Notes under the pieces: generated by a model
The model's database searches: none
Told to the model about the DNA's origin: nothing
What the model saw: the letters and a program-made list of their open reading frames with translations, nothing else
NCBI GenBank assembly: GCA_038064635.1
Contig: JBBTSS010000007.1
Location: forward strand, 9,163 to 66,399
Source: Patescibacteria group bacterium
Lineage (GTDB): Bacteria > Patescibacteriota > Minisyncoccia > Phycocordibacterales > UBA9973
Direction of reading: 5' to 3'
DNA: 57,237 nucleotides
Translations under genes and position numbers: made by a program
Shown: positions 7,399-26,423 of the stretch, one piece after another
How positions within the stretch are numbered: the stretch's first letter is position 1
Layout of the letters: the number at the start of each line of letters is the position of its first letter

Positions 7399-8112
7399 AT
7401 GGATCAAAGTTTCCAAACATCATTTATACCAAAAAAGCCAGTAGTTGAAGAGAGAACAAAGGCGTCTAGACCTATGGGTCTTTTTACTATTATTGGTATT
7501 TTTATTTTTGTATCTATGGCACTTTCTTATGCTGGACTTTATTTCTATAAAGGGATACTTACTAAAAATATCACAGAAATGGAGAAGAATTTAACTTTAG
7601 CTAAAAATCGTTTTGAACCTGAAAAAATATCTCAACTAAAACTCTTGGATAGACGTTTGCGTTCATCTAATGAAATTTTATTAAAGCATATTGCTGTTTC
7701 ACCTATTTTTAAAGCTTTAAGTCAGGTTACTTTAAAAACTGTACGTTATACAAAATTTAGCTATGATTTAGCAGGGGATAAGAATTCTCAAATATTGGTA
7801 AAATTAAACGGTCAAGCGGTTGGGTATCGTTCTGTCGCTCTCCAAGCTGATATCTTAGCGAAAGATGAACGTGTAAATAAACATATTATCGATCCAGTCT
7901 TTTCAAACTTGTCACTTGATGATAAAGGAAATGTTTTGTTTGATTTAGAATTTTTTGTTGATGCTGATTTTGTTGATTATAGACAAGCTCTTGAAACTGA
8001 AAGTCCAGCTAATTCTGTCATTGAAAATGTAAATACAACTACACCCACCACGAATACTACGACTCCGAATTCTACAAATACAGACACAAAAGTAAAAGAA
8101 GATAATTTATAA
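7399..8112 (+). CDS. PilN-like pilus assembly protein (single TM plus coiled coil, Thr/Asn-rich tail)
   Basis: Position after pilM. N-terminal TM segment LFTIIGIFIFVSMALSYAGLYF followed by a coiled-coil-like region. Confidence 0.55.
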   Translation: MDQSFQTSFIPKKPVVEERTKASRPMGLFTIIGIFIFVSMALSYAGLYFYKGILTKNITEMEKNLTLAKNRFEPEKISQLKLLDRRLRSSNEILLKHIAVSPIFKALSQVTLKTVRYTKFSYDLAGDKNSQILVKLNGQAVGYRSVALQADILAKDERVNKHIIDPVFSNLSLDDKGNVLFDLEFFVDADFVDYRQALETESPANSVIENVNTTTPTTNTTTPNSTNTDTKVKEDNL

Positions 8113-8116
8113 AAAA

Positions 8117-8728
8117 ATGTTAAGACTTATCACACCAATTATTTTAATAGCTCTCTCTATCGGCGGATTCGTTCTTTTTGTAAGTCCTATGTATAAAGAG
8201 ACAAATGTTCTAAAAGAACAGGTTTCTTCTTACAATCAAGCATTAGATAACTCTAAGGCTCTTGAAAATGAAAGAGATAAATTGACTAAGAAATATAGCG
8301 CTATTGATCCTGTAAATTTAGATAAATTACAAAAACTTTTACCTGATAATGTTGATAATATCCGTTTAATATTAGAAATAGAAAAAATAGCTTCACCTTA
8401 CGGAATGATCTTAAAAGACGTAAAGTATGAGACAGAATCAAAAGCTGATAAAGCTGCTCCAAACACTACTGGTGGCGTAGGTACTGTTGCTGGAGGAACT
8501 CAAATTAAACAAAACAGCAAAGAATATGGCACATGGGACTTAGGTTTTTCTATTGAAGGTAAATATAATGATTTTATTAATTTTACTAAAGACTTAGAGA
8601 GTAATTTGAGAATAGTAGATATAGCTTCAATTCAATTCAATTCAGATGTACCTTTGACTGGAGCGAAATCCTTTTCAGAATCTTATAAGTATAGTTTTAA
8701 AGTTAAGACTTATTGGTTAAAAAATTAA
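8117..8728 (+). CDS. PilO-like pilus assembly protein
   Basis: N-terminal TM segment, coiled coil, then a C-terminal globular part. Called by synteny after the pilN-like gene. Confidence 0.5.
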   Translation: MLRLITPIILIALSIGGFVLFVSPMYKETNVLKEQVSSYNQALDNSKALENERDKLTKKYSAIDPVNLDKLQKLLPDNVDNIRLILEIEKIASPYGMILKDVKYETESKADKAAPNTTGGVGTVAGGTQIKQNSKEYGTWDLGFSIEGKYNDFINFTKDLESNLRIVDIASIQFNSDVPLTGAKSFSESYKYSFKVKTYWLKN

Positions 8729-8729
8729 A

Positions 8730-9269
8730 ATGTCACCAAAAATTAAAAACATAATACTTTTTGTGGGAATAGGTCTTGTATTGGCTGTTGTTTATTTTGT
8801 GTTTATAAAAAAAGCACCAGAAGAGCCAAACTTACAAACTGTTTCTTCTGGACTTACAACCACAACTACGAATGAGGTTTCTTCAGAACCAAAACAAGAT
8901 TCACAAATAGCAAAGGATTTTCTTGCGCTTTTACTTAGCGTAAAAGGAATTAATCTTGATGATAGTATTTTTGCGAATACTGCTTTTAGTCATTTGCGCG
9001 ATTCAAGTATTTTACTTGTTCAAGATGGAAATGAAGGACGTGCTAATCCTTTTGCTCCTATTGGCACTGACGTTGTTTCGACTCCAGTAACTACTACTGA
9101 CTTGAATGCTAGTGTCTTTGATGCGGGTATAGCGGCATCAGAAGAGCCTGAAATAAAAGCACCAGCTCCTAAAACTACAACTCCAAAAACAAATAGTTCT
9201 GCGGGTTCTTTTTCTCCTAGCTCTTTAAATGAGGTCGTACCACCATCAAATTCGTCTGGTACGAGATAA
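8730..9269 (+). CDS. Membrane-anchored Ser/Thr/Pro-rich protein of the pilus operon, unknown function
   Basis: N-terminal TM segment IILFVGIGLVLAVVYFVF. Tightly packed between the pilO-like gene and pilB. Confidence 0.55.
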   Translation: MSPKIKNIILFVGIGLVLAVVYFVFIKKAPEEPNLQTVSSGLTTTTTNEVSSEPKQDSQIAKDFLALLLSVKGINLDDSIFANTAFSHLRDSSILLVQDGNEGRANPFAPIGTDVVSTPVTTTDLNASVFDAGIAASEEPEIKAPAPKTTTPKTNSSAGSFSPSSLNEVVPPSNSSGTR

Positions 9270-9273
9270 AATT

Positions 9274-11028
9274 ATGAGCTTTTTAGAAGAATTAGTAAAA
9301 AGAAAAATAATAAATTCCGGCCAGATATTGGACATAAAAAATCTTGCACAAGAAAAATACGCAGGGGATGTGGAGGAAGCATTGCTCCAATCAGGCATAA
9401 CGGAAGACCAAATCCTTGAAGTAAAAGGGGAGTATTATAGTATTCCTGTAAAAAGGGTAAATATAAAAGAACTTTCTTTTGATATTTTGAAATATATTCC
9501 AGAAGACTCTGCTCGTTATTATCACTTTGTACCTTTTGCTCTTACTGAGGGTGTATTGGAAGTCGGAGTAACAGATCCTGAAGATATTCAAGGCATGGAT
9601 GCTTTGCAATTTATTTCTGCTAAATTAGGTATACCTTTTAAAATTTTTTTAATTCCTAAAAGTGATTATTTGGAAGTGATGAATAATTATAAGGGTCTTT
9701 CTGTCGAAGTGGAACAAGCTCTAGGTGAATTTGGAGCAGATGAACAAGATTTGAAAGAATTAGGAAAAGACTTAAGTAACTCTGATTTAAATAAAGAATT
9801 AAGCGACGTAAAAATGAAAGACGGAAAGATCGTCGAAGACGCTCCTATCATCAAAATAGTCGCTGTTATTTTACGTAATGCAATAGAAGGAAATGCTTCT
9901 GATATACACGTTGAACATATTGGAGAAAAAGTGAAAGTGCGTTACCGTGTAGACGGAACACTTCATACTACTATCATGCTTCCTACTAATGTTCACAGCG
10001 GTATTGTTGCTCGTGTAAAAATCTTAGCAAAACTTCATTTAGATGAAAAAAGAAAACCACAAGACGGATCTTTCACTACAAATATAGATGGACGCAAAGT
10101 AGACTTCCGTGTCTCTACTATGCCTGGTTATTATGGAGAAAAGATTGCTATTCGTATCTTAGATACTGAGAAAGGAGTTCGAACTTTAGACCAGCTTGGT
10201 CTTTCTCAAACGAATGTTGATATGGTTCGTGAAGCTATAAAAAAACCTTATGGACTTATCCTTGTTACAGGTCCTACTGGAGCCGGAAAATCAACCACCC
10301 TTTATTCAATTATGAATGAATTAGATAAAGAAAAAAGGAATGTTGTTACTCTTGAAGATCCTGTTGAATATAACATGCCAGACGTGAACCAGTCTCAGGT
10401 GATGCCAGAGATAGGGTATACTTTTGCATCAGGACTTCGTTCTATATTGCGTCAAGACCCAGATATTATAATTGTTGGAGAAATACGTGATAAAGAAACA
10501 GCTCAACTTGCTATACAAGCTGCCCTTACTGGACACTTGGTTTTATCAACTTTGCACACGAATAATGCTATCGGTGCTATTCCTCGTCTTGTAGATATGG
10601 GAGTTGATCCTTATCTTATTGCCCCGACTCTTATACTTTCTGTTGCTCAGCGTCTAGCTCGTGCTACCTGTAAGTCGTCAAAGAAACTTGTACCGATGGA
10701 TCCAAGTATTAAACTTCAGATTGAAAACCAGATGGCAGACATACCTCTTGAGTTTAAAAAGAACGTTGTTATAAAAGACGAGATGTACGACACTGTACCT
10801 TCTTCTGAATGTCCATCTGGAACTCGGGGGCGTATTGCTATATTTGAAATGTTTAGAGTTGATAAAGAGATTCAAAATGTTATTTTAAAAAATCCTATTG
10901 AATCTGAGATATATAAAGTTGCTAGAAAAAATGGTATGTTTATGATGAGGGAAGATGCTATGCTAAAGGCAGTAGAGGGTGTTATTCCTTTTAGTGACGT
11001 TTATAATTTTAGTAATGAAAATGAATAG
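9274..11028 (+). CDS. pilB: Type IV pilus assembly ATPase PilB (GspE family)
   Basis: Walker A GPTGAGKST, the Asp/His boxes, and a tetra-Cys-like region (TCKSS...ECPSGTRG). ATG 9274 is preferred over 9229 because it follows the upstream stop. Confidence 0.92.
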   Translation: MSFLEELVKRKIINSGQILDIKNLAQEKYAGDVEEALLQSGITEDQILEVKGEYYSIPVKRVNIKELSFDILKYIPEDSARYYHFVPFALTEGVLEVGVTDPEDIQGMDALQFISAKLGIPFKIFLIPKSDYLEVMNNYKGLSVEVEQALGEFGADEQDLKELGKDLSNSDLNKELSDVKMKDGKIVEDAPIIKIVAVILRNAIEGNASDIHVEHIGEKVKVRYRVDGTLHTTIMLPTNVHSGIVARVKILAKLHLDEKRKPQDGSFTTNIDGRKVDFRVSTMPGYYGEKIAIRILDTEKGVRTLDQLGLSQTNVDMVREAIKKPYGLILVTGPTGAGKSTTLYSIMNELDKEKRNVVTLEDPVEYNMPDVNQSQVMPEIGYTFASGLRSILRQDPDIIIVGEIRDKETAQLAIQAALTGHLVLSTLHTNNAIGAIPRLVDMGVDPYLIAPTLILSVAQRLARATCKSSKKLVPMDPSIKLQIENQMADIPLEFKKNVVIKDEMYDTVPSSECPSGTRGRIAIFEMFRVDKEIQNVILKNPIESEIYKVARKNGMFMMREDAMLKAVEGVIPFSDVYNFSNENE

Positions 11029-11078: not shown

Positions 11079-11486
11079 ATGGAAGGAGATAAAAAGAAAA
11101 TTTTAATAGTTGATGATGATAGTTTTCTTTTAGATATGTATGCTTTTAAATTCAGTCAAAATAATTTTGAAGTACACACTGTATCAGATGGCTCACAAGC
11201 TTTAGATAAACTAAAAGGGGGATTAGTTCCAAATATTATTTTGATAGATGTTATCATGCCAGGAATGGATGGTTTTGAGGTTTTACAAAAAGTAAATGAA
11301 GAAAATCTTTCTCCAGATTCTATTAAAATAATTCTTTCAAATAAAAGTCAGCAGTCGGATATAGACAGAGGTCATTCATTGGGAGTGAGCGGTTATATCG
11401 TAAAAGCAAACTCGACTCCAGCTGAGGTTATCGACCAAGTGATAGAAATTTTGAATGCAACTCAAAAGATTGTTATTCCACAATAA
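11079..11486 (+). CDS. Stand-alone response-regulator receiver domain (CheY/PilH-like)
   Basis: VDDD acidic pocket, phospho-acceptor D in ILIDVIMPGMDG, and a conserved S and K (ILSNK, GYIVKA). Confidence 0.85.
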   Translation: MEGDKKKILIVDDDSFLLDMYAFKFSQNNFEVHTVSDGSQALDKLKGGLVPNIILIDVIMPGMDGFEVLQKVNEENLSPDSIKIILSNKSQQSDIDRGHSLGVSGYIVKANSTPAEVIDQVIEILNATQKIVIPQ

Positions 11487-11503: not shown

Positions 11504-12562
11504 ATGAATCATAAACAAGAATTAGAAGATCTTATTTTAACAGTGATACGAGAAGGTGGCTCAGACTTGCACATAGGAGCAGGTAGATCACCTGCTATTC
11601 GTGTATCTGGAGAACTTATTTTTTTGGTAAAACACGATCCTTTTAAACCTGAAGATATGGAAGGTCTTTTGAAAATAGTTTTTGATGAGAAGAAGTTTGA
11701 TAAATTTATGGAGTCGCAAGAGATGGACTTTTCTTATGATTTTCGTGGTGAAGCTCGACTTCGAGGTAACGCTTTTTTCCAAAAAGGATTAGTAAATTTA
11801 GTTTTTAGATTAATTCCAAAAGTAAAATCTCTTGGAGAACTTAGACTTCCTCCTGTTATAGCTGAAATTGCTCGGAAGAAACAAGGTTTCTTTTTGGTTG
11901 TAGGTCCAGTAGGTCAAGGTAAGTCTACTACTTTATCTGCAATGATAAATATAATAAACAAAGAACAGACAAAGCATATTGTTACTATTGAAGACCCTAT
12001 TGAGTATATGTACTCAGCGGACAAGTCCATAATCAATCAACGTGAAGTTGGCCTTGATACAAAAGATTTTCATACAGCATTACAATCAGTCTTTCGTGAA
12101 GACGTGAATGTCATATTAATCGGTGAAATGCGTACACCAGAAACTATTTCTACTGCGGTCACAGCGGCTGAGACTGGCCACTTGGTTTTCTCTACTCTTC
12201 ATACAAATAATGCCTCTCAAACAATAGATAGAATTATAGATTCTTTTCCAGCAGGTCAACAAGATCAGATTCGTGTACAACTTGCGTCCAGTTTATTGGG
12301 AATATTTTCTCAAAGACTTGTTCCTCGTATTGCTGGTGGGCTTGTACCTGCTTTTGAGTTGCTGTTAAATAACAACGCAGTATCAAACTTAATACGCGAA
12401 AAAAGAACTCATGAAATAGATGTTGTGATAGAGACAGGTATGGAGTCTGGCATGATCGACTTGAACCACTCACTTTTGGAATTAGTACGTACCGGTGAAA
12501 TATCTATTGAGAATGCTTATCAATACTCACTTAATCCAAAAGGATTAGAAAGAATGTTGTAA
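11504..12562 (+). CDS. pilT: Twitching-motility retraction ATPase PilT
   Basis: 352 aa. Walker A GPVGQGKST, HLVFSTLHTN, and a PilT-type C-terminus. Confidence 0.92.
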   Translation: MNHKQELEDLILTVIREGGSDLHIGAGRSPAIRVSGELIFLVKHDPFKPEDMEGLLKIVFDEKKFDKFMESQEMDFSYDFRGEARLRGNAFFQKGLVNLVFRLIPKVKSLGELRLPPVIAEIARKKQGFFLVVGPVGQGKSTTLSAMINIINKEQTKHIVTIEDPIEYMYSADKSIINQREVGLDTKDFHTALQSVFREDVNVILIGEMRTPETISTAVTAAETGHLVFSTLHTNNASQTIDRIIDSFPAGQQDQIRVQLASSLLGIFSQRLVPRIAGGLVPAFELLLNNNAVSNLIREKRTHEIDVVIETGMESGMIDLNHSLLELVRTGEISIENAYQYSLNPKGLERML

Positions 12563-12568
12563 AAAATT

Positions 12569-13777
12569 ATGTTATTTAAATATAAAGCAGTTGATGACAA
12601 AGGAATAAACAAAGAAGGGGAAATAGATGCTCCTAATAAAGACATTGCTATAAGTGGTCTTCAGAGACGGGGACTTATCATTTTGGCTATAAATGCAAAA
12701 GAAGACACCAAGTCTATTTTTAATAGAACCTTCTCTACAAAAGTACCAATGAAAGATGTAGTTATTCTTTCTCGTCAGATTGCTACACTTTTTGAAGCAC
12801 AAGTCTCTGCTTTGAAGGCTTTCAATATGCTTGCTGCAAATTCTGAAAATAAACTTTTAGGAGAAAAGTTAAATCAAATAGGAGATGATCTGCAAGCAGG
12901 TGTTTCTATTTCCGGGGCACTTTCTCGTCATCCAGATGTTTTTTCTGATTTTTATATAAACATGGTAAAAGCAGGAGAGGAAACAGGAAAGTTGAATCAG
13001 ACCTTTTTACATTTGGCTGAATATTTAGACAGACAGTATGCTTTAACTTCTAAGACCAGAAATGCTCTTATCTATCCGGCATTCGTTATCTTTACTTTTC
13101 TTGTAGTTATGACAGTGATGTTTGTCGTAGTTATACCGAGACTTTCTACTATTTTAAATGAATCCGGACAAGAAGTTCCTTTCTTTACAAAGATAGTCAT
13201 TGGATTTTCAGATTTTTTTGTAAATTATGGTTTCATTTTTGCAATTTCTTTAATTTTGTTTGGTATTTGGGTTTGGAGTCTTTCACGTACAGACAAAGGG
13301 AAAGAGTACATAGACAGAACACGTCTTTCTCTACCTGCTGTTGGTAATTTATATAGAAAACTTTATCTTTCTAGAATTGCAGACAACTTGGATACCATGC
13401 TTGTTTCAGGTATACCTATTGTGCGTTCCATTGATATAACTGCTGATGTTGTTAGTAGCCGTGTGTACAAAGATTTATTAAAAGACGTAGCTGATGGTGT
13501 GAAGTCTGGTCTTGCTTTGTCTGCTTCTTTTCAGAAATATCCAGATCAAATTCCAGGTATCATGGTACAGATGGTGAAAGTAGGAGAGGAGACAGGTTCT
13601 CTTGGTCAGATATTGAAAACATTAGCTGATTTCTATAAACGTGAAGTTGATGATGCAGTAGATACTCTCGTCGGGCTCATAGAACCTATTATGATAGTAG
13701 TACTTGGTCTCGGAGTAGGTATTTTATTGGTTTCTATACTGCTTCCTATTTACAACTTGGCTGGAGGTATAAATTAA
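12569..13777 (+). CDS. pilC: Type IV pilus platform protein PilC (GspF family)
   Basis: 402 aa with a duplicated GspF domain (VKAGEETGKL / VKVGEETGSL) and three TM regions. Confidence 0.92.
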   Translation: MLFKYKAVDDKGINKEGEIDAPNKDIAISGLQRRGLIILAINAKEDTKSIFNRTFSTKVPMKDVVILSRQIATLFEAQVSALKAFNMLAANSENKLLGEKLNQIGDDLQAGVSISGALSRHPDVFSDFYINMVKAGEETGKLNQTFLHLAEYLDRQYALTSKTRNALIYPAFVIFTFLVVMTVMFVVVIPRLSTILNESGQEVPFFTKIVIGFSDFFVNYGFIFAISLILFGIWVWSLSRTDKGKEYIDRTRLSLPAVGNLYRKLYLSRIADNLDTMLVSGIPIVRSIDITADVVSSRVYKDLLKDVADGVKSGLALSASFQKYPDQIPGIMVQMVKVGEETGSLGQILKTLADFYKREVDDAVDTLVGLIEPIMIVVLGLGVGILLVSILLPIYNLAGGIN

Positions 13778-13831: not shown

Positions 13832-13910
13832 AAAGCTATTAAAAACAAGTCGAAGTTTCTGTTCTCTTAAAAAAAGAACAGAGAAAATTATAAATTATTA
13901 ATAGTCACTT

Positions 13911-13927
13911 GTCTCATTTAATGAGAC
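13911..13927 (+). promoter_or_regulatory. 5' UTR palindrome or hairpin GTCTCAT-TTA-ATGAGAC
   Basis: Perfect 7-bp inverted repeat ending 10 nt before the pilin ATG. Confidence 0.5.
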
Positions 13928-13937
13928 GAAACAAATT

Positions 13938-14471
13938 ATGAAGAAAATTAATTTTAAGAAAGGTTTCACACTTATAGAACTTTTGGTTGTTATCGCTATC
14001 ATCGGTATCTTGGCTTCTGTTGTTCTTGCATCACTTAACACAGCAAGAGCAAAAGGAAATGACGCTTCAATCAAAGCAACTCTAGCTGGTATTCGTGCTC
14101 AAGCTGAAGTTGTATATGATGCAAATGGTTGTTACGCAGACGGTGTTGCTGCAGGTTCTGGTTGTGCTGCAGGTGCAGTTGCTCCAGCTGCTTGTGCTAC
14201 TTCAGGTGCTGGTTTTACAGATACAATCTTTGGAGAAGCGACTGTTGCTTCTCAAATCGCAGCTGCAAAAGCTAACTCTCTAAACACTTTGAACGCTTGT
14301 GCTTCTACTGCTAACCAAGGTGCATGGGCTATCGTAACTCAACTTAAGAGTTCTGGTACAGCTGGATGGTGTGTTGACAGTACAGGAAAATCAAAGCAAG
14401 TTACTTTAGCTACTGCTGACCAAGCTGGTGCTACTGCTGAAGTTAACGCTTCAGGTGCTTGTGTAGAATAG
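13938..14471 (+). CDS. pilA: Type IV major pilin (prepilin with N-methylation motif), copy 1
   Basis: KKGFTLIELLVVIAIIGILA class III signal. Ala/Gly/Cys-rich C-terminal domain containing WCVDSTGKS. Confidence 0.92.
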   Translation: MKKINFKKGFTLIELLVVIAIIGILASVVLASLNTARAKGNDASIKATLAGIRAQAEVVYDANGCYADGVAAGSGCAAGAVAPAACATSGAGFTDTIFGEATVASQIAAAKANSLNTLNACASTANQGAWAIVTQLKSSGTAGWCVDSTGKSKQVTLATADQAGATAEVNASGACVE

Positions 14472-14491
14472 TTGATATTGTTTCTTAAAAC

Positions 14492-14530
14492 AAAACTACT
14501 TCATTGATTTGAGGTAGTTTTTGTTTTTTT
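14492..14530 (+). terminator. Intrinsic terminator after pilin copy 1
   Basis: Stem AAACTACTTCA/TGAGGTAGTTT (one G-U pair) followed by a T-run. Confidence 0.7.
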
Positions 14531-14570
14531 GTAGCAGTATATAAAGAAGATGTGTTTTTTTACTTCGTTA

Positions 14571-14579
14571 TGGTACAAT
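14571..14579 (+). promoter_or_regulatory. Extended -10 promoter (TGGTACAAT) for pilin copy 2
   Basis: TGnTACAAT ends 8 nt before the duplication boundary at 14588. Confidence 0.5.
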
Positions 14580-14616
14580 TTTGTTGTAGAAAATTATAAA
14601 TTATTAATAGTCACTT

Positions 14617-14633
14617 GTCTCATTTAATGAGAC
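14617..14633 (+). promoter_or_regulatory. 5' UTR palindrome GTCTCAT-TTA-ATGAGAC (copy 2)
   Basis: Same element as 13911-13927. Confidence 0.5.
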
Positions 14634-14643
14634 GAAACAAATT

Positions 14644-15177
14644 ATGAAGAAAATTAATTTTAAGAAAGGTTTCACACTTATAGAACTTTTGGTTGTTATC
14701 GCTATCATCGGTATCTTGGCTTCTGTTGTTCTTGCATCACTTAACACAGCAAGAGCAAAAGGAAATGACGCTTCAATCAAAGCAACTCTAGCTGGTATTC
14801 GTGCTCAAGCTGAAGTTGTATATGATGCAAATGGTTGTTACGCAGACGGTGTTGCTGCAGGTTCTGGTTGTGCTGCAGGTGCAGTTGCTCCAGCTGCTTG
14901 TGCTACTTCAGGTGCTGGTTTTACAGATACAATCTTTGGAGAAGCGACTGTTGCTTCTCAAATCGCAGCTGCAAAAGCTAACTCTCTAAACACTTTGAAC
15001 GCTTGTGCTTCTACTGCTAACCAAGGTGCATGGGCTATCGTAACTCAACTTAAGAGTTCTGGTACAGCTGGATGGTGTGTTGACAGTACAGGAAAATCAA
15101 AGCAAGTTACTTTAGCTACTGCTGACCAAGCTGGTGCTACTGCTGAAGTTAACGCTTCAGGTGCTTGTGTAGAATAG
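14644..15177 (+). CDS. pilA: Type IV major pilin, copy 2 (100% identical protein)
   Basis: The translation is identical to 13938-14471. Confidence 0.92.
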   Translation: MKKINFKKGFTLIELLVVIAIIGILASVVLASLNTARAKGNDASIKATLAGIRAQAEVVYDANGCYADGVAAGSGCAAGAVAPAACATSGAGFTDTIFGEATVASQIAAAKANSLNTLNACASTANQGAWAIVTQLKSSGTAGWCVDSTGKSKQVTLATADQAGATAEVNASGACVE

Positions 15178-15192
15178 TATTTATTTTTTAAA

Positions 15193-15229
15193 AAACCACT
15201 TTGAGGTAACTCAGAGTGGTTTTTGTTTT
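15193..15229 (+). terminator. Intrinsic terminator after pilin copy 2
   Basis: Stem AAACCACTTTGAG/CTCAGAGTGGTTT followed by TTTTGTTTT. Confidence 0.75.
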
Positions 15230-15422
15230 GTTATTTTTTTGCTATACTTAATAATGTAGTAATTTATTTATTACAAAAAGTGAAAAATTTTATTAAAATT
15301 TTTACTGTGAGCTATCGTTTAATATTGTTGCCTTAAAAAGGTGTGCGGATTCTGCACATCTTTTTTGTTTTTATAGTAGTTCTTTTCATTATCAATATTA
15401 TTAATTTTTATAAAATACGAGT

Positions 15423-18400
15423 ATGCAAAAAGTATCAAGTCTTAAGTTTTTGTTAAGTTTCTTTGTGTTTTTTGTTTTTATGTTTTTCGCTAATAATGCG
15501 AATGCAAATATTATTTATTCTCAGTTAGATGATAGTGTAGAAATACCAAATTCAAGTATTGGTGCTTCTCCAGATGCTTCTTTTACGGAAGTAGCAGGAC
15601 ATATAAAAAATCTAAAGTTTGCTTACCATGATTATGGTAATGGCCCGGGCCATTTTATTGGTGTAGCTGTTGTGGATTTAGATGCAGGTATTAGTTATTA
15701 TGCTCACAAAATAGGAACGCCTAATGGCTGTGGATCTTCTTATGAATCAACAGGCTTAAATGCAAAAACGATTGTTGAATTCGACGAGACTTATGAATAC
15801 AAAGCATATCCATGTACGGGATCAAACCTTGTTTTAGATTCAACTCATAAATATGGAATAACCATGTTTAGAAATTCAGGCGGTGCAGATACTCAAAGAT
15901 TTTATGGTTCTAGTACCAACACAAAAGATTTGTATTGGTACGTAGAAAATGATAGTAATTTTCATGACGCTCAAAATTCAGTAACTTCTTTTGTGTTATC
16001 AAATTTTAACCCTTCCGTAGTCGGAGTAGTAGACGAACCTTCTCGTACTATAAATATAGCAGTTCCTTTTGGTCAAGATATTTCAAGTATTACACCAGAC
16101 GTTGTTGTATCAGATGGAGCTACTTATAGTCCAAGTGGGGCGCAAAATTTTAATTTACCTGTTACTTATACTGTAACTGCCGTAGATGGTGCTATTAAAA
16201 AATATAAGGTTAAAGTTACTATAAATTGTGCTGTTGGTTGTATTGAATCTGCTGCCTATAATCAAGTTGATGATTCAGTTGAAATTAATCAATCTTCTAT
16301 AAGTGCTTTCAATACTTTTACAGGATACTCCGGTAGTGTTGCAGATTTAAAATTCTCTTACCATGATCATGGTAATAGTGCGGGGCATTTTATTGCTGTT
16401 TCTATTGTTGATTTCACTGCAGGTGTTAGTTATTATGCTGTAACAGGAAATACAGGCTGTGGTAATTCTTATCAATCAAAAGGATTAAATGCTAAGACTG
16501 TTGTAGATTTTGATTCTTCTACTAAATATAAAGCATATCCATGTACTGGGGATAATCTAGTTTTAGATGAGACCCATACCTATGGAGTAACCATGTTTAG
16601 AAATTCAGGCGGTGCAGATACTCAAAGATTTTATGGTTCTAGTGATTCAAATAATGATGTTTCTTTGCAAATAAAGACACATAAAGTCTCTCCTGATTTT
16701 ACTAAGCCAGAAACATTACCAACTCTTGTTGGAATGTTAGGTACAAATGATTGGCATACTTCTGATGTAACATTATCTTTCACTGCTACTGACGATTTAT
16801 CTGGAGTTTTGAATACTAAGTACTCATTAGACAATGGTATTACTTGGAATATCTACGTAAGTCCAGTCGTCTTTTCAAATGAAGGTACTCATGTGGTGAA
16901 ATATAAATCTGAAGATTTATTAGGTAATGTTGAAGATGAACAAACAGTAGAAATAAAAATAGATAAGACAGCTCCAAATACGACGCACGACATTGTGGGT
17001 ACACAAGGTGAAAATAATTGGTATGTATCTAATGTTGATTTTTCTTTAAATCCTATTGACACAACCTCTGAAGTGTTTGAAATACTTTATTCTCTTGATC
17101 AGGGTATAACTTGGCTTCCGTATTCTGTTGCTTTATCTTTAGTTGATGGAGATAATGCTGTTTTATATAAATCAGTAGATTTTGCTGGGAATGAAGAAGT
17201 TGTTCACTCTATCAATGTAAAAGTAGATACAGTAAGTCCAATATCTACTCCAGTGGTAGCTGGAGAAGAAGGCATGAATGGTTGGCTTACTTCTAGTGCT
17301 GTACTAGACTTTACTGCAACAGATGACACTTCTCTTGTTTCTACAATAGAGTATTCAGTGAATAATGGCCCATGGGAAATTTACAGCACTCAACTATCTT
17401 TTAATACTGGTACTTATGTTATTAAATACAAAGCAAAAGATAATGCAGGTAATATAGAAGATGAGCAAACTATAACTACAAGCGTAGATAGTAATGCGCC
17501 AGTTACTACAATAAATGTAAATGGTACTTTAGGCACAGAAGATTGGTATGTTTCTGCTACTAATTTTGAATTTAGTGCAGTTAGCGAACCTTCAGGTATT
17601 TTAAAGACAGAGTATTCACTTGATGGGGGAGTTACTTGGAATTTATTCAACGGTAGTCCTGTTTTGTTGTCTGAAGGCATTGATGTCGTGTCTTATAAAT
17701 CTACAAATAACGCAGGTGTAGTTGAACAAGTTCGAAATACTACAATAAAAGTAGATTTAACAAATCCAAATACAACTCACACTGTTTCTGGTACATCTGG
17801 AACGAACGGTTGGTATACATCTGACACTACTTTATCTTTAAACGCAACTGACGCTGGTTCTGGAATTTTAAGGACTGAATATTCAGTAGATGAAGGAATG
17901 ACTTGGAATGAATATATTAACCCGATAGTTTTTAATGAAAATTTAGTTCAGAATGTTTTATATAAATCTACTGACAGTGCAGGAAACATAGAAATTGAGA
18001 AAACATTTTCTATGAAAATAGATAAAACAGCCCCTGAAGCAAAGATTGTGTTTGATCCAAATACTAAAGATCTTTCAGTCGTGGGGATAGATGCAGATTC
18101 TAATACAACTATCGTACTGACAGCTACTTCAGCTCTTGTGACAAATGAGGCAGGAAGAACAGTAGAAGTTAAGTTTTCAAAGTTTGTAGGTACGGATAAA
18201 AAAATAAAATTGGAGATTAGTGAACTTAAATACAATGGGATTTCTAATGGAGTTTTCACTAAAAAAGTTACTTTAAGATATCAATGGCAGTTAAACAGTA
18301 GTGGTCAAATAAAACAACTCACAGAAAAAGCTGTCGTAGGTAAAGATAAAGTAACAGGTAATTACAAATTGAATCCACATGACGCGACTAAAATCGTGAA

Positions 18401-18566
18401 GAAAGTCAAAAAAGTCAATGAACAAGGGGATTATGACGACGACGAAAATTTCGATGACGGTGATGAGGGTTGTGATGATAAGCCGAAAACTAAAAGAGAA
18501 ACTCTTCATGGCTTAGTACTAGTAGGTTTTGAAACGAGTCAAGGCCAAGTTAACACAGTTTTTTAG
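15423..18566 (+). CDS. Large secreted multi-repeat surface protein (putative pilus-locus adhesin)
   Basis: 1047 aa with a signal-like N-terminus ending ANNANA. Contains two copies of an unassigned module of about 140 aa, one Ig-like module, five tandem modules of about 88 aa, and an acidic tail. Confidence 0.85.
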   Translation: MQKVSSLKFLLSFFVFFVFMFFANNANANIIYSQLDDSVEIPNSSIGASPDASFTEVAGHIKNLKFAYHDYGNGPGHFIGVAVVDLDAGISYYAHKIGTPNGCGSSYESTGLNAKTIVEFDETYEYKAYPCTGSNLVLDSTHKYGITMFRNSGGADTQRFYGSSTNTKDLYWYVENDSNFHDAQNSVTSFVLSNFNPSVVGVVDEPSRTINIAVPFGQDISSITPDVVVSDGATYSPSGAQNFNLPVTYTVTAVDGAIKKYKVKVTINCAVGCIESAAYNQVDDSVEINQSSISAFNTFTGYSGSVADLKFSYHDHGNSAGHFIAVSIVDFTAGVSYYAVTGNTGCGNSYQSKGLNAKTVVDFDSSTKYKAYPCTGDNLVLDETHTYGVTMFRNSGGADTQRFYGSSDSNNDVSLQIKTHKVSPDFTKPETLPTLVGMLGTNDWHTSDVTLSFTATDDLSGVLNTKYSLDNGITWNIYVSPVVFSNEGTHVVKYKSEDLLGNVEDEQTVEIKIDKTAPNTTHDIVGTQGENNWYVSNVDFSLNPIDTTSEVFEILYSLDQGITWLPYSVALSLVDGDNAVLYKSVDFAGNEEVVHSINVKVDTVSPISTPVVAGEEGMNGWLTSSAVLDFTATDDTSLVSTIEYSVNNGPWEIYSTQLSFNTGTYVIKYKAKDNAGNIEDEQTITTSVDSNAPVTTINVNGTLGTEDWYVSATNFEFSAVSEPSGILKTEYSLDGGVTWNLFNGSPVLLSEGIDVVSYKSTNNAGVVEQVRNTTIKVDLTNPNTTHTVSGTSGTNGWYTSDTTLSLNATDAGSGILRTEYSVDEGMTWNEYINPIVFNENLVQNVLYKSTDSAGNIEIEKTFSMKIDKTAPEAKIVFDPNTKDLSVVGIDADSNTTIVLTATSALVTNEAGRTVEVKFSKFVGTDKKIKLEISELKYNGISNGVFTKKVTLRYQWQLNSSGQIKQLTEKAVVGKDKVTGNYKLNPHDATKIVKKVKKVNEQGDYDDDENFDDGDEGCDDKPKTKRETLHGLVLVGFETSQGQVNTVF
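15861..15914 (+). repeat. 54-nt exact repeat (partner at 16590-16643) inside the two N-terminal modules
   Basis: ACCATGTTTAGAAATTCAGGCGGTGCAGATACTCAAAGATTTTATGGTTCTAGT occurs twice, encoding TMFRNSGGADTQRFYGSS. Confidence 0.85.
16590..16643 (+). repeat. 54-nt exact repeat (partner at 15861-15914)
   Basis: See partner entry. Confidence 0.85.
16711..18036 (+). repeat. Five tandem modules of about 265 nt (88 aa), Ig-like/OmpL47-type
   Basis: Recurrent pattern G.NGW[YH]TSD..L...A.D..SG...TEYS.D.G.TW..Y...V.....G...V.YKS.D.AGN.E......I.IDKT.P. Confidence 0.8.
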
Positions 18567-18588
18567 CCAAAAATAAGGAGATATTAAC

Positions 18589-18620
18589 AAAACACCATTG
18601 TAGCAATGGTGTTTTGTTTT
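18589..18620 (+). terminator. Intrinsic terminator after the large repeat protein
   Basis: Stem AACACCATTG/CAATGGTGTT followed by TTGTTTT. Confidence 0.75.
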
Positions 18621-18636: not shown

Positions 18637-18682
18637 ATAGGATATTATTAGTTGTTATTTTTTTATAATCAATTTGAATCTT

Positions 18683-19153
18683 ATGTTTAAATTAAAAAGG
18701 GAAAAAGGTTTTACGCTCATAGAACTTTTGATTGTGATAGCTATTATAGCTATCCTAGCTACTATTGTTGTGATTGCCTTGAATGATGCTCGAAATAAAG
18801 GTGCTGATGGTAGTGTAAAGTCAAACCTTTCAAGCGCACGTTCTGTGGCAGAAGTTTTTTATAATACAAATGTAGCAAATCCTAATACTTATATCTTACT
18901 TTGTACAAACGGTACAATAGGTGGTATTAGTGGCAACATGTTAGCTGCTATAAAATCAGCAGGTTTAGTTAGTTATACTACAAACGGTACGGGAACACTT
19001 ACTACTGCAACATGTAATGAAAATGGTTCCTCTTGGGCTGCAGAAGTTCCTCTTAAGAGTCCTAGTAATAGCATGTGGTGTGTTGATAGTCTCGCTGCTT
19101 CTAGAAAGACAACATCATCTATTGGTGCTGGTACAGTTTGCCCTTTGAACTAA
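18683..19153 (+). CDS. Type IV pilin, second paralogue type
   Basis: EKGFTLIELLIVIAIIAILA prepilin motif. The C-terminal MWCVDS motif is shared with the major pilin. ATG 18683 is preferred over TTG 18674. Confidence 0.88.
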   Translation: MFKLKREKGFTLIELLIVIAIIAILATIVVIALNDARNKGADGSVKSNLSSARSVAEVFYNTNVANPNTYILLCTNGTIGGISGNMLAAIKSAGLVSYTTNGTGTLTTATCNENGSSWAAEVPLKSPSNSMWCVDSLAASRKTTSSIGAGTVCPLN

Positions 19154-19973: not shown

Positions 19974-20618
19974 ATGTTTAAAGAATTTCAACAAATAAAT
20001 ACAAAAAAGGGAATGACTTACGTAGAGCTTATTGTTGTTTTAAGTATTTTCTCTATTATTTCTACTGTTGTTGTTTTTAATTATGGAGCTTTTCAATCAA
20101 AGGTAGATATAAAAAATTTAGCAAATGATGTAGCTTTGAAAATAGTGGAAGCTCAAAAATCCTCAACGTCCGGCGACTTGTCTACTTTGCCTCCTGTTGT
20201 TTTCCCTTGGAGGCCGTCGTATGGGCTTTATTTCGATACTGGAACTTCTAAAAGTTTTATTTATTTTACTGACTTAAATAATTCTGGAACCGATACAAAT
20301 CATCCAAATTACCCAGAAGCTTGTGATGATTCTAGTTGTATACCTCCATACAGTATAGGAGGGGAAGTAAATGAGATAATAAATATTACAAGAGGTAGCT
20401 TTATAGGTAATAATGGATTAGAAGTTTTTGGTCCTGGTTGTCCTGCTACTGTTTCTAACTTGAGTATAGTTTTCAAACGTCCTAGTTCGACTGCTGTTAT
20501 CGCTTCAAACCCTCCATTAGGCTGTACCCCTTCTTATGTTTCAGTAAATTTATCTTCCCCTTATTCTTATGTGTCTAAAATAAAAATATATCCATCAGGT
20601 AGGATACAATTAGATTAA
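19974..20618 (+). CDS. Minor pilin / pseudopilin
   Basis: KKGMTYVELIVVLSIFSII prepilin-type N-terminus. Confidence 0.75.
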   Translation: MFKEFQQINTKKGMTYVELIVVLSIFSIISTVVVFNYGAFQSKVDIKNLANDVALKIVEAQKSSTSGDLSTLPPVVFPWRPSYGLYFDTGTSKSFIYFTDLNNSGTDTNHPNYPEACDDSSCIPPYSIGGEVNEIINITRGSFIGNNGLEVFGPGCPATVSNLSIVFKRPSSTAVIASNPPLGCTPSYVSVNLSSPYSYVSKIKIYPSGRIQLD

Positions 20619-20622
20619 CCCC

Positions 20623-21237
20623 ATGAAAATGAATTTTTTAAAAAACAAAAGAACAAATAAAGGATATACTATCATTGAGACGATGATAGCTATCTCTTTA
20701 TTTATAGTTATAATCATGGCTGGAATGGGAACTTTACTTAACGCAAATCTGCTTCGAAATAAATCAGAAGATGTACGTTCTATTATAGATAATCTTAGTT
20801 TTATTTTAGAAGATATGTCTAGAAATTTGCGTACGGGCTATAATTATCGTTGTGTTGATAATGGTATTTTTAATAATCTTGATGTGCCTTTAAGTTGTGC
20901 TAGTGGTGGTGCAATAGTTTTTGAAGAAGCACATGGAGATGTGGGTGTTACTAGTGATCAATGGATATATAAAGTAGAGTCAAACGATGGTGGTATTACT
21001 TTTAATATCTGGAAGTCGACTGATGGAGGTACTAGCTACGTGCAATTAAATACTAGTGATATTTTGATTAATTCAGTTTCTGGGTTTTCTGTTTTAGGAG
21101 CAGAAGAGGCGTCTGGTAACCAACAACAACCATTAGTAAATATCAGATTAGCTGGTAAGATAAAATACAAAGAAGTTGAAACACCTTTTGATTTACAAAC
21201 TTCCGTCTCTCAAAGATTAATTCAATTAGTACCATAA
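20623..21237 (+). CDS. Minor pilin / pseudopilin
   Basis: NKGYTIIETMIAISLFIVI prepilin-type N-terminus. Confidence 0.75.
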   Translation: MKMNFLKNKRTNKGYTIIETMIAISLFIVIIMAGMGTLLNANLLRNKSEDVRSIIDNLSFILEDMSRNLRTGYNYRCVDNGIFNNLDVPLSCASGGAIVFEEAHGDVGVTSDQWIYKVESNDGGITFNIWKSTDGGTSYVQLNTSDILINSVSGFSVLGAEEASGNQQQPLVNIRLAGKIKYKEVETPFDLQTSVSQRLIQLVP

Positions 21238-21238
21238 A

Positions 21239-21817
21239 ATGAAATTTTCCTTAAAACAAAAAAATAAAGGGTTCACTTTAATTGAAACGCTTGTCGCTAT
21301 ATCTATTTTTACTGTTTCTGTTATCGCGCTTTTGACTATTGTGTCTAGCGGTATCACAGATACTCTATACGCGAAGAAAAAAATGGCGGCTATATATCTA
21401 GCCCAAGAGGGTATAGAGTATATGAGAAATATGCGAGATACTTATCTTTTATATCCTCCAAATGGAACTGTTGGATGGGACGATTTTAAAGTAAAGATTG
21501 AAGATTGTAATACAGACAATGGGAAAGGCTGTTATTTTAATGATCAGGCATTAGACTTCAATGATCAAATACAACCTATCATAGACATCACTATTTCACC
21601 TTGTGTTGCTGGGGTGTGCCCCACTTTATTATATGATTCTCTTACTGGTAAGTATAACTACACTACGGGTGTTAATTCTGGTTTTGTAAGAAGAATTAAT
21701 ATTACCAATATAAATGCTCACGAAACACAGATATATTCGACTGTGACTTTTATGAATGGATCTGTGCCGTACGAGATTACTTTTTCAGAAAATTTATTTA
21801 ATTGGATAAGACAATAA
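21239..21817 (+). CDS. Minor pilin / pseudopilin
   Basis: NKGFTLIETLVAISIFTVS prepilin-type N-terminus. Confidence 0.75.
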   Translation: MKFSLKQKNKGFTLIETLVAISIFTVSVIALLTIVSSGITDTLYAKKKMAAIYLAQEGIEYMRNMRDTYLLYPPNGTVGWDDFKVKIEDCNTDNGKGCYFNDQALDFNDQIQPIIDITISPCVAGVCPTLLYDSLTGKYNYTTGVNSGFVRRINITNINAHETQIYSTVTFMNGSVPYEITFSENLFNWIRQ

Positions 21818-21819
21818 TA

Positions 21820-24370
<2,551 letters not shown>

Positions 24371-24456: not shown

Positions 24457-25365
24457 CTATCCGTGATGTTCTCCACCTCCTCCAAGCAATAGGGCTGAAG
24501 TGTTGTCGTCCAAATTTGGAGTAAGCCAATTGACCGTTTTGCCGCCCCAGACTGATACTGGCCAAAAACTGAATGCAGTAAGCCAAACGGGCCAACCCAG
24601 GTTTACTATCCAAAGGAATACACTGATCACAAAAAATGCTACCACTAATAGGCTTGAAATGAAGGTAAGAAAACTGCTCCAACCAAATATTACGAGCATG
24701 GGTTTGTTTATTGAGACAATCCCGAGACCGAAAATTTTGACTGGTTTCTCTCCTGCACTAGCTTGAGCTACAAATCGGAAGAAAAATATTATTCCACATA
24801 GCAGAAGAAAAAGTGCTGAAAACACCCATGTCACGACTGACCATGCAAATGATGCCCCATCCGATACCTTTGTAGAAAACCAGTTGAAACTAAGAAAAAA
24901 TTTCTGTTTTGTTTCTTCTTGTGTGGTCGAGTCTGGAAAACTCCATTCGCCACCAGGTCGCTGTCTTTTTGTAACTGGTTGAAGGTCTCCACCACCTTTG
25001 TCTTTTTCGGCAACAGCAGTGTTGGCGCTTTCCAGTTCATATCCGGGTTGAATTTTGCCATCTTTTGGAGCTGGGTAGATTTTTACTTTTTGTATTTCTA
25101 CATCTACTTTGCCCGTGAAGCCTTCCAGATATTCATTCATGAGTCCTCGAAATGTTTTTCCTGAACTTTTCCATTTTAACTCAGAAGGTTTTCCGGCGGT
25201 TGATACTGTTAAAACAACCGAAGCTCCATCTTCGACGAAGTATGTGTTGCAAGTCCGTGTTCCGAGGTAAGCTTCTACGGCTTCTGGTAAAGTTTGCTTT
25301 GCAAACGCTGAGAGAGGCAGGGTCATTATTATGGCCACTACCAAAAGGAAAGGTACTTTTTTCAT
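24457..25365 (-). CDS. Hypothetical secreted/polytopic membrane protein (302 aa), GC-elevated
   Basis: Signal-like N-terminus (LPLSAFA), a soluble part of about 150 aa, then 4-5 Trp/Phe-rich TM segments. Ends in GGGGEHHG. Confidence 0.7.
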   Translation of the reverse strand: MKKVPFLLVVAIIMTLPLSAFAKQTLPEAVEAYLGTRTCNTYFVEDGASVVLTVSTAGKPSELKWKSSGKTFRGLMNEYLEGFTGKVDVEIQKVKIYPAPKDGKIQPGYELESANTAVAEKDKGGGDLQPVTKRQRPGGEWSFPDSTTQEETKQKFFLSFNWFSTKVSDGASFAWSVVTWVFSALFLLLCGIIFFFRFVAQASAGEKPVKIFGLGIVSINKPMLVIFGWSSFLTFISSLLVVAFFVISVFLWIVNLGWPVWLTAFSFWPVSVWGGKTVNWLTPNLDDNTSALLLGGGGEHHG

Positions 25366-26423
25366 AATTCCTGAAAGTTTTGGTGTGATGAATTTTGTGA
25401 AAATCTTTTGAAGTGTTTTTTGATCATTGTTGCCTTTTTTGCTTCCATAGCTAAAAGGAGTTCCTGTACTGTAATTATGCCATCACAATGTGAATTGTTG
25501 TGCATAATTTGTGCTCCATCCATATACCAACCATCAAATGGTTGATTCTGAAGGTAATTCTGTGGGTTTTTATCCCATTTTCCGTAGATTTTAGTCTCGC
25601 CTCGTTCACCTATTAAAGAAGGTGCAAAAAGACAAAGATATACATCGATAGCTTCTATTTGGTGATTTTTTGAATAATCACCTAACCAGTGCATGTGATA
25701 AGCGTTTGATAAACCCATAATAGGTTGTATTTGCTTGTTTTCACACCAGCTGATTACTTCAGAAAGTTTATATGTCCTTCCTTCGTATTTTATTCCTTGC
25801 AATCCTTTTGCAGTAAATTGACTCCAAGAAGCTGCGACACGATCGGTGCGCACTATTAGAGGATTTAAACTACACTCAAAAAGAGCTGGAGAATAAAAAG
25901 TAAGAGGGGAAGCACTTAACCTTTTTGCCGTAGCGTGTACACTATCAATTACAATTTTTCGAATATATTCGTCACCGACGATGTTTTGTTCGAAAACTGA
26001 AATTAACTGATCTTCTGGTAACCCAGAAAATTGATCCATGTAAACAGGATCCAATTTCTGTTGTGCCCATTCAATAAAATTATGAACAGGAGACCAAAAA
26101 ATCCAAAGAGCGGTAGCGAATATTAAAAGTCGCCATTTTCTTTTTTTTATTCTTAGAACAAAGAATTGCCATAAGAATTTAAAAGTAATTTTTGCACCCT
26201 TTTTTGTGTATTTTATAGCGTAACTTAGTAGCCCAAAAATATAGGAAAGTAAAACGATTATTGCGATACATCCTGCTATTTTAAGCCACCCATCTAGAGA
26301 CAACAGTATTTGGATGAAATCCAGAAAGTTGACTAGGTCAACTTTTAAACGTTCAACCGAACATCCTGAAAACAGGAGGCTCAGGAACAGAAGCGCTGAG
26401 AGAATTCTTGTTTTTCTGAACAT
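25362..26423 (-). CDS. Hypothetical lipoprotein-like membrane protein (353 aa)
   Basis: Lipobox-like LFSGC, 2-3 TM segments, then a globular domain of about 230 aa with no motif I can assign. Overlaps the downstream gene by 4 nt. Confidence 0.7.
   Translation of the reverse strand: MFRKTRILSALLFLSLLFSGCSVERLKVDLVNFLDFIQILLSLDGWLKIAGCIAIIVLLSYIFGLLSYAIKYTKKGAKITFKFLWQFFVLRIKKRKWRLLIFATALWIFWSPVHNFIEWAQQKLDPVYMDQFSGLPEDQLISVFEQNIVGDEYIRKIVIDSVHATAKRLSASPLTFYSPALFECSLNPLIVRTDRVAASWSQFTAKGLQGIKYEGRTYKLSEVISWCENKQIQPIMGLSNAYHMHWLGDYSKNHQIEAIDVYLCLFAPSLIGERGETKIYGKWDKNPQNYLQNQPFDGWYMDGAQIMHNNSHCDGIITVQELLLAMEAKKATMIKKHFKRFSQNSSHQNFQEL

Follow-up and report, generated by a model that had tools for sequence, protein, structure and literature searches.

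Bacteria of the Candidate Phyla Radiation (CPR, or Patescibacteria) are unable to synthesise lipids, nucleotides or amino acids, and they appear to live attached to host cells. According to reviews, the molecules that serve host recognition and lipid acquisition in these organisms are largely unknown (PMC11665869). In cultured CPR bacteria, the Saccharibacteria, epibiotic growth requires type IV pili as well as distinct surface adhesins (PMC10633639, PMC11665869), and a multistep model has been proposed in which contact by the pilus is followed by the action of close-range adhesins (PMC11623550). Elsewhere, the secreted protein CofJ has been proposed to form a bridge between pilus and host (PMC6048534; PMC9565799), and OmpL47 of Leptospira, which is surface-exposed, binds several matrix proteins weakly (PMC2935396). 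The present analysis concerns a gene, here called X, that encodes a secreted modular protein of 1047 residues within a type IV pilus cluster of a Patescibacteria group bacterium. It lies on a stretch of 57,237 nucleotides (contig JBBTSS010000007.1 of assembly GCA_038064635.1), which is referred to as the window and supplies the position numbers used for X and its neighbors.

The product of X may be a rod-like surface protein that is exported by Sec and that, as a fibre beside the type IV pilus, binds to the host surface. This reading is preferred tentatively, at somewhat less than an even chance, and draws on the domain order of the protein, on the cassettes that it shares with secreted lipases and on its place among pilus genes.

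Domain architecture of X

The features of X are as follows (aa, amino acid residues; Ig, immunoglobulin).

15423..18566, forward strand: X, the whole gene for the secreted modular protein; open reading frame (ORF) with ATG start, 1047 aa, with colinear orthologue P0025
15423..15506, forward strand: predicted Sec-type signal peptide, aa 1-28, cleavage between ANA and NIIYSQ
15507..15947, forward strand: putative jelly-roll module 1, aa 29-175, cysteine pair C103 and C131; family profile E 6e-70, AlphaFold2
15975..16223, forward strand: Ig-like spacer, Pfam DUF5018 (PF16410), aa 185-267; 49.5 bits against a gathering threshold of 38.2, E 3.8e-13
16251..16667, forward strand: putative jelly-roll module 2, aa 277-415, cysteine pair C346 and C374; family profile E 1e-66
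16719..18044, forward strand: five tandem OmpL47-type β-sandwich repeats, aa 433-874 (NF047446): R1 16719-16982, R2 16983-17243, R3 17244-17507, R4 17508-17774, R5 17775-18044
18045..18563, forward strand: conserved C-terminal tail domain, aa 875-1047; 43% identity to the tail of the orthologue
18429-18479, forward strand: acidic patch DYDDDENFDDGDEGCDD in the tail, aa 1003-1019

This layout agrees with an initial annotation made from the bare sequence, which had described a signal-like N-terminus, two diverged modules of about 140 aa, one Ig-like module, five repeats of about 88 aa guessed to be of OmpL47 type, and a tail ending in a poly-acidic patch, and had seen no prepilin motif, sortase signal or lipobox. 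The signal peptide, judged by inspection and hydropathy, ends in an AxA site; aa 1-28 are the sole hydrophobic segment of X, which has no other membrane segment, and the mature chains of homologues likewise start with (N/S)V(L/I)YSQ right after an AxA-like site. When anchoring signals were sought by regular expressions and hydropathy, neither a prepilin motif, nor a lipobox, nor a C-terminal LPXTG-type signal was found in X, the single loose LPXTG-type match being the N-terminal IPNSS at aa 41. Tests for a type IV pilin gave no N_methyl match in Pfam and no class III signal motif by regular expression. Hydrolase families of Pfam and NCBIfam had no match in X, the LCAT (PF02450) α/β-hydrolase domain included.

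The Ig-like spacer was matched by scanning aa 185-267 alone, as the scan of the whole 1047-aa protein did not report it; the match covers positions 134-215 of the 352 in the DUF5018 profile, which correspond to its Ig-like sub-domain. Among PDB sequences the spacer resembles 8a9y_T, a DUF4960 protein (E 6.7e-7), and 3hbz_A (E 1.3e-6). The OmpL47-type repeats, of about 88 aa each, are matched by NCBIfam NF047446 in five stretches, well over its cutoff of 40 bits, both in X (224.1 bits, E 1.3e-67) and in the orthologue P0025 (249 bits). A full Asp-box (YSLDxGxTW) is present in four of the five repeats, the third being degenerate (YSVNNGPW). The repeats are 31-53% identical among themselves versus 44-62% to their positional orthologues; each is nearer its orthologue than its neighbors, so that the five-repeat length would be an old and maintained feature. 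The equivalog model for Leptospira OmpL47 itself, NF047441, scored 146.1 bits in X, below its cutoff of 250, and only the repeat domain is common to the two. As for the tail, it terminates in β-strand-like segments (...GLVLVGFETSQGQVNTVF) and had no match among Pfam families or PDB sequences.

No record was matched in an exact-sequence look-up of X, and a single full-length orthologue was found. This protein, P0025 (1042 aa), is 49% identical to X over 99% of its length (1046 aligned positions) and is colinear with it from the signal peptide through the C-terminus. Module 1 and the tail are among the parts least conserved between the two, at 43% identity each.

A family of N-terminal modules

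The two N-terminal modules of X are 58-59% identical to each other, and a six-frame search of the window with a hidden Markov model (HMM) found no further copies. No match to the module was obtained in Pfam, NCBIfam or the PDB sequences, where only noise at E > 0.04 remained. Such PDB and Pfam matches of the module or the tail, namely kynurenine monooxygenase, ribosomal protein S4, DUF4139 and secretogranin (all E > 0.04), were discarded. The module had first the look of an orphan, since a word-indexed search with aa 1-440 returned only a 99% identical fragment and DUF5018 Ig matches, but this was set aside when HMMER found relatives: an exhaustive search of 1.84 billion representative proteins yielded about 11 real clusters (at 50% identity) that carry the module, two other matches, P0023 and P0024, being false positives due to TPR repeats.

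The family profile (A2) was built from 14 module sequences and matches over about 150 aa, including two invariant cysteines. Its signature reads YSQxDxS...KFSYxDxGN...PCxGxNLVLDPTHxY...FRNxGGxxTQRFYGS, and nearly all full-length members contain two module copies with a DUF5018 Ig domain between them. That the two cysteines of each module are invariant in the 14-sequence alignment suggests a disulfide; the conserved columns of the same alignment are rich in Tyr, Asp, Asn, His and Gln. From this alignment AlphaFold2 predicted an all-β sandwich of 11 strands, with a predicted local distance difference test (pLDDT) score of 88.9 and a predicted template modelling (pTM) score of 0.85; the 14 family sequences were needed for a confident model, as the two-copy alignment gave a pLDDT of 38. 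Foldseek found nothing at a template modelling (TM) score of at least 0.5 for this model in the PDB or BFVD. The weak neighbors in the PDB were CBM6 (1uy0 and 1uxz) and 4-1BBL/TNF-like proteins (E 2e-3 to 1e-2, TM 0.36-0.43) together with a phage spike, and those in BFVD were phage minor-tail proteins, tail fibres and C1q-domain proteins (E at least 3e-4, TM 0.35-0.47). A jelly-roll-like sandwich is therefore a plausible fold class for the predicted structure. The initial annotation could not place the module in any family, and this holds, since neither the HMM searches nor Foldseek matched it to a known enzyme or lectin family.

Exact repeat and probable gene conversion

The two modules share a tract of perfect nucleotide identity, extended here to the limits of the exact match.

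15859..15914, forward strand: 56-nt identical tract, copy in module 1
16588..16643, forward strand: 56-nt identical tract, copy in module 2

The initial annotation had noticed this repeat at a length of 54 nt and had suggested gene conversion or strong constraint; the repeat exists, at 56 rather than 54 nt, and gene conversion gains ground from two observations. First, synonymous-capable codons are identical in 17 of 17 cases inside the tract versus 40 of 70 (57%) elsewhere in the module pair, with P about 7e-5 for a fixed tract and, by a rough correction that allows about 70 possible starts, roughly 5e-3. Second, a tree of 30 module copies places first copies with first copies, and most second copies with one another, across different proteins, with the exception of X, whose module 1 is nearer its own module 2 (58%; 74% in the C-terminal half) than its positional orthologue (43-44%). 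Gene conversion between the two X modules is thus supported by their sequences, apparently in two episodes, an older one over a large region and a recent one over a short tract. As first copies group with first copies and most second copies with second copies across architectures, the module-Ig-module cassette appears to have moved as a unit.

Cassettes shared with secreted lipases

Proteins other than X and P0025 carry the module in different architectures, which are encoded outside pilus loci (neighborhoods were seen for classes a and b below). The search for related loci with the module used a 4-sequence subset of the alignment. The carriers, with m1 and m2 for the first and second module copies, fall into three classes.

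Class a: P0013, P0028 and the L003 protein (from a metagenome-assembled genome of Minisyncoccia); signal peptide, m1, Ig, m2, LCAT-type lipase (PF02450), C-terminal domain; among housekeeping genes
Class b: P0012, P0026, P0027, P0029 and P0030; uncharacterised N-terminal domain, Ig, m1, Ig, m2, Ig; adjoining L10 (L12 where seen) and purH
Class c: P0021, P0020 and P0017; variants with a single copy of the module

The C-terminal domain of class a is PxKF, as shown for P0013 only. The class b-type N-terminal region of about 230 aa (P0012, P0018, P0026-P0030) is a conserved domain that matched nothing in Pfam, NCBIfam or the PDB sequences; it has an SHSQG/AHSEG motif reminiscent of a nucleophile elbow. 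A lipase identity for the N-terminal domain of the P0012/P0018 architecture found no support in Pfam, NCBIfam or PDB sequences and is not claimed.

Tails like that of X end seven other proteins, namely the products of five LCAT-type lipase genes and two fragments.

Tail-bearing lipases: L009, L010, L012 with its near-identical copy L013, and L014; found by a metagenome scan with the tail profile; about 1000 aa or more
Tail-bearing fragments, with N-terminal parts unseen: P0071 and L011

The lipases are laid out as signal peptide, N-terminal domain, LCAT-type lipase, β domain, one OmpL47-type domain and X-like tail. Their N-terminal domain has β-helix/NosD matches (Pfam, NCBIfam) in L014 and none in the other three. 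The LCAT-type domain is present in P0013, P0021 and the L009, L010, L012 and L014 proteins, and the lipase cores of class a and of the tail-bearing lipases are homologous (27% over 441 aa, E 1e-26). Motifs common to the tails are KIDKTAPEA, TDEAGHT, YDG, (R/K)YxW, YRPK, the acidic patch, RPx(R/K)ExLxGMxxP and TxxGxV, usually followed by a C-terminal aromatic residue, and in all proteins that have it the tail forms the extreme C-terminus.

By its sequence, then, X combines the accessory cassette that opens one class of lipases with the accessory cassette that closes another; its OmpL47 unit is five-fold and the enzyme is omitted. It was considered whether X might be a degenerate lipase pseudogene, and this was rejected, since the reading frame is unbroken, the protein aligns colinearly with its orthologue and its parts meet at clean domain boundaries. 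The accessory cassettes of secreted enzymes normally target or retain them. Since X consists only of such cassettes and a stalk, it is best read as an adhesin or a spacer fibre.

Which of its ends would face outward is a separate matter. In monoderm adhesins the N-terminus is the usual distal position, and in both X and the LCAT class the mature chain begins with the modules; together with the invariably C-terminal tail, this analogy suggests that the tail is proximal and the module pair distal. The opposite arrangement would have the pair bind the wall or S-layer glycan of the producer itself, retaining the lipases as well as X; in that event X would belong to the envelope or serve as a spacer, or have its tail outward, and would take no part in host recognition. 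Jelly rolls that resemble carbohydrate-binding modules can indeed be wall-binding, and CBM6 is among the fold-class matches; the cassette is internal rather than terminal in P0012, P0026 and P0029; and two heads that have been homogenised by gene conversion rather than diversified fit a constant self-ligand. Nevertheless, the tail never leaves the extreme C-terminus, the N-terminal place of the head is that of a distal domain, and the weak conservation of module 1, tied with the tail, is as expected of a part that tracks a variable external ligand, so that such a reversal is regarded as quite improbable.

Two sets of observations concern the surroundings of these genes. At positions 1167-1850 of the metagenome locus L008, directly after the C-terminus of dnaE, a 227-aa ORF encodes a partial OmpL47 repeat and a tail without a signal peptide, and appears to be what is left of a larger gene. 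Directly 3' of cassette-bearing genes there is also a gene for a small hydrophobic protein of 122-136 aa that seems to cross the membrane several times, at the following places.

L003, 12465-12842: small membrane protein gene
L008, 1868-2236: small membrane protein gene
L009, 4359-4754: small membrane protein gene
L011, 669-1076: small membrane protein gene
P0028 locus: small membrane protein gene (122 aa)

These genes follow both full-length lipases (L003, L009, P0028 locus) and tail-bearing fragments (L008, L011). The four copies compared, the P0028-locus gene being left out, are weakly homologous (E 1e-3 to 5e-7), and their products could be immunity or accessory partners of the lipases. 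No such gene follows X in the window or in the locus of its orthologue.

The pilus locus and its orthologue

X sits within a complete, secretin-less type IV pilus cluster, whose genes were identified by Pfam matches unless marked otherwise.

6178-7308: PilM
7399-9269: two unassigned ORFs that flank a PilO-like ORF
9229-11028: probable PilB (position and inspection)
11079-11486: response regulator
11504-12562: probable PilT (position and inspection)
12569-13777: PilC
13938-14471 and 14644-15177 (span 13938..15177), forward strand: two identical major-pilin genes (N_methyl)
18674-19153, forward strand: third pilin (N_methyl), 159 aa
19169-19957, forward strand: PilD (Peptidase_A24)
19974-20618, 20623-21237 and 21239-21817, forward strand: three minor pilins (N_methyl)
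21802-22320, forward strand: fourth minor-pilin-like gene (no Pfam match; hydrophobic N-terminus, position, and 53% identity to its counterpart in locus L005)

N_methyl was matched in five of the six pilin-like neighbors scanned, three of them above the gathering score, the gene at 21802-22320 being the exception. Together with the Peptidase_A24 match, this confirms the place that the initial annotation had given to X, between the duplicated major pilin and the third pilin and PilD.

The orthologue P0025 is encoded in locus L005, where the order of genes is pilin, pilin, X orthologue, PilD, three minor pilins and a pilin-like protein of 926 aa. Identities between the two loci are 62% for PilD, 57% for the pilin and 42-54% for the minor pilins, and on these sequences the loci are orthologous. 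The slot of X between the pilins and PilD has been kept in L005 despite rearranged pilin genes, and X, at 49% identity, has diverged to the same degree as the minor pilins. The initial annotation had asked whether orthologues always lie in pilus loci; the single full-length one does, whereas both end-cassettes are also found outside. The 926-aa protein (L005 7388-10168) is a homologue of the 172-aa product of 21802-22320, 53% identical over the first 170 or so residues, with a C-terminal extension of about 760 aa that has InlB B-repeat (Flg_new_2) domains; it is a candidate tip adhesin that just one of the two genomes possesses.

Sequences around X that bear on its transcription are listed below.

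15191-15224 and 15335-15365: terminator-like hairpins upstream of X (hairpin scan)
15389..15416, forward strand: promoter-like site just 5' of X (consensus scan; weak, 9 of 12 matches)
18586..18618, forward strand: intrinsic-terminator-like hairpin downstream of X, with a 15-bp stem, a 3-nt loop and a T-rich tail (inverted-repeat and terminator scans)

The terminator scan saw 8 sites versus 2.5 expected. As the promoter-like site lies 3' of two hairpins, X probably has a promoter of its own, and the hairpins both before and after it make X probably a separate transcription unit with respect to the pilin genes, in keeping with the terminator that the initial annotation had ascribed to it.

A position of this kind might mean that X is an accessory adhesin docked on the pilus, which would be exported by Sec, bind the minor-pilin tip complex and reach the outside together with the pilus. 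In favor of this, X has a Sec signal and is not a pilin, its gene stands between the pilins on one side and PilD and the minor pilins on the other in two orthologous loci, and its divergence matches that of the minor pilins. There are precedents for secreted proteins that are encoded in pilus operons, are not themselves pilins and attach to minor pilins (PMC6048534; PMC9565799), and the Saccharibacteria proteins PilX1 and PilX2 have lectin-like domains without a predicted PilD signal (PMC11623550). On the other hand, no Neisseria_PilC or β-propeller match was found for X in the Pfam scan, both of the end-cassettes by which it could dock are likewise found on lipases whose genes are remote from pilus genes, its transcription is probably separate, and L005 already has in its 926-aa protein a possible tip adhesin. 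Docking of X at the tip is thus considered unlikely.

The transcription signals bear likewise on the view that X is a released soluble factor, namely a bridging or decoy protein on the host receptor of the lipases or a matrix component, whose place in a pilus locus would be a historical accident. In this case the own promoter (weak, and inferred from position) and terminator of X, the lack of any anchoring signal of a known kind, and the truncated OmpL47-tail relic next to dnaE on the L008 metagenome, which shows that cassettes move around genomes, would all find an explanation. Such a protein appears very improbable: a full-length colinear orthologue occupies the same slot at 49% identity, a stalk of five repeats would be costly for a freely diffusing protein, and the conservation of the tail across distant proteins suggests a specific interaction partner.

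Several other observations were made in the window. The tandem duplication of the major pilin is exact over 591 nt (13882-14472 = 14588-15178), spans the whole 177-aa gene and its upstream region, and is either a very recent event or an assembly artefact; a terminator-like hairpin stands downstream of each copy (14492-14521 and 15191-15224, respectively). The response-regulator gene (11079-11486) encodes a stand-alone receiver between the probable PilB and PilT genes. ORFs of 179-353 aa without a Pfam match lie at 24457-26423 on the reverse strand and at 7399-8112 and 8730-9269 on the forward strand, the latter two in the pilM-pilO-pilB stretch, where PilN-like or other assembly proteins are expected. 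The rest of the window holds housekeeping genes (PheS/T, GyrB, ThrRS, LigA, RNase III, SMC). Its PheS clusters at >=90% identity with a protein from a metagenome-assembled genome labelled 'Candidatus Paceibacteria', which places the organism among the CPR bacteria. NusB and NUDIX hydrolase domains, an unusual fusion, share one ORF at 45002-45937, and a Peptidase_S11 (D-Ala-D-Ala carboxypeptidase) domain and a PGA_cap capsule-synthesis domain share another at 50263-52194 on the reverse strand.

A proposed surface fibre beside the pilus

According to the preferred reading, that of a host-binding surface fibre, the conserved tail would be the cell-proximal end of X, held non-covalently on the envelope of the producer or possibly on the pilus. 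The five OmpL47-type domains and the DUF5018 Ig domain would make up a spacer stalk, and the two modules at the mature N-terminus, jelly rolls braced by disulfides, would form a bivalent lectin-like head for a glycan or some other ligand on the host surface. Initial contact would be made by the pilus, which would retract and leave X to hold the cells together at close range. As the only orthologue keeps the position in the pilus locus, X and the pilus would seem to cooperate in function. The polarity of X, its ligand binding, its retention on the envelope and its cooperation with the pilus are all inferred.

Several points weigh against this reading. None of the cassette-bearing lipase genes lies in a pilus locus, so that the pilus context is not intrinsic to the cassettes, and synteny between two related genomes (n=2) could be explained by shared ancestry alone. 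The terminators that flank X imply that it is probably not co-transcribed with the pilins, and any physical coupling to the pilus is hypothetical. As the tail has neither a recognisable anchoring motif nor a known homologue, retention is a conjecture, and the reverse polarity could apply. Because all fold matches of the module fall below TM 0.5, at E of at least 3e-4, the term lectin-like denotes only a resemblance in fold class, and ligand binding and the role of an adhesin are read from the architecture. The evidence base, with two orthologues and about 11 domain clusters, is thin. The initial annotation had proposed a pilus-associated adhesin, of which the adhesin-like architecture and the pilus locus, in the window and in L005, stand, while the ends of the protein proved not to be specific to pilus loci.

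The sharing of cassettes invites a broader proposal, which must be called doubtful. In Paceibacteria-type CPR bacteria, the jelly-roll pair might constitute a new family for recognising host surfaces, transferred as a cassette between the pilus-locus adhesin X and secreted LCAT-type phospholipase-like enzymes, so that one "address label" would send both attachment and the harvesting of host-membrane lipids to one host receptor; the OmpL47-tail unit might be a new module for retention on the envelope or the pilus where sortase or lipobox anchoring is lacking. If this were true, the way in which uncultured CPR bacteria recognise hosts and acquire lipids could be approached through specific molecules. 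If glycans of the host envelope prove to be ligands of the heads, the latter would determine host range in a way that can be tested, and the shared cassettes would link attachment to lipid scavenging; otherwise, X would be one more large modular surface protein.

Comparison with known systems

The PilY1/PilC proteins, tip-associated adhesins of type IVa pili in Pseudomonas, Neisseria and Myxococcus, are, like X, non-pilins of about 1000 aa with a Sec signal that are encoded among pilin and minor-pilin genes, and they similarly combine a variable N-terminal binding part with a conserved C-terminal part. They differ from X in that there is no sequence homology and in their C-terminal β-propeller (Pfam Neisseria_PilC), which is absent from X among Pfam matches at E <= 1. 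X, for its part, belongs to a monoderm CPR bacterium, lies between the major pilin and PilD and is probably transcribed separately. CofJ and TcpF, the products of type IVb operons, are far smaller than X. Like X they are secreted non-pilins; they dock on the minor pilins CofB and TcpB and are needed for attachment or colonisation (PMC6048534; PMC9565799). Unlike X, they are exported via the pilus machinery of diderm bacteria, and their sequences and domains are unrelated to it. Direct docking of X on the pilus, in the manner of PilY1 or CofJ/TcpF, is conceivable though unlikely.

Other likenesses are limited to parts of the protein. Leptospira OmpL47 and other NF047446 proteins, such as surface proteins of Neobacillus, have the repeat domain in common with X, whose heads and tail are unrelated to them. 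Surface glycan-binding proteins of Bacteroidota with N-terminal DUF5018/DUF4960 Ig domains (PDB 8a9y, 3hbz) share only the Ig spacer of about 85 aa, and X differs from them in having no lipobox and no SusC/D context. Cassettes are shared with LCAT-type lipases, of which one group (P0013, P0028 and the L003 protein) shares the N-terminal module-Ig-module cassette of X and another (the L009, L010, L012 and L014 proteins) its C-terminal OmpL47-tail cassette, with one OmpL47 repeat versus five in X. In contrast to these enzymes, X has no α/β-hydrolase domain and, unlike any of their genes, is encoded in a pilus locus.

Among CPR bacteria, comparable proteins are PilX1 (β-jelly-roll-like) and PilX2 (β-propeller) of the Saccharibacteria (TM7x), pilus-locus proteins with lectin-like domains that have been proposed as host-glycan adhesins (PMC11623550). 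They are pilin-like and lollipop-shaped, with an N-terminal helix and a globular domain to which C-terminal domains have been added, whereas X has no pilin domain, and its putative jelly-roll modules are a rare family of about 11 clusters, distinct from PilX1 and PilX2. Large modular surface proteins are a known kind, as are non-pilin proteins whose genes lie in pilus loci; what is new in X is an unclassified head family and an unclassified conserved tail, both of which, on the evidence above, have been exchanged in CPR-type bacteria between secreted lipases and a protein of a pilus locus.

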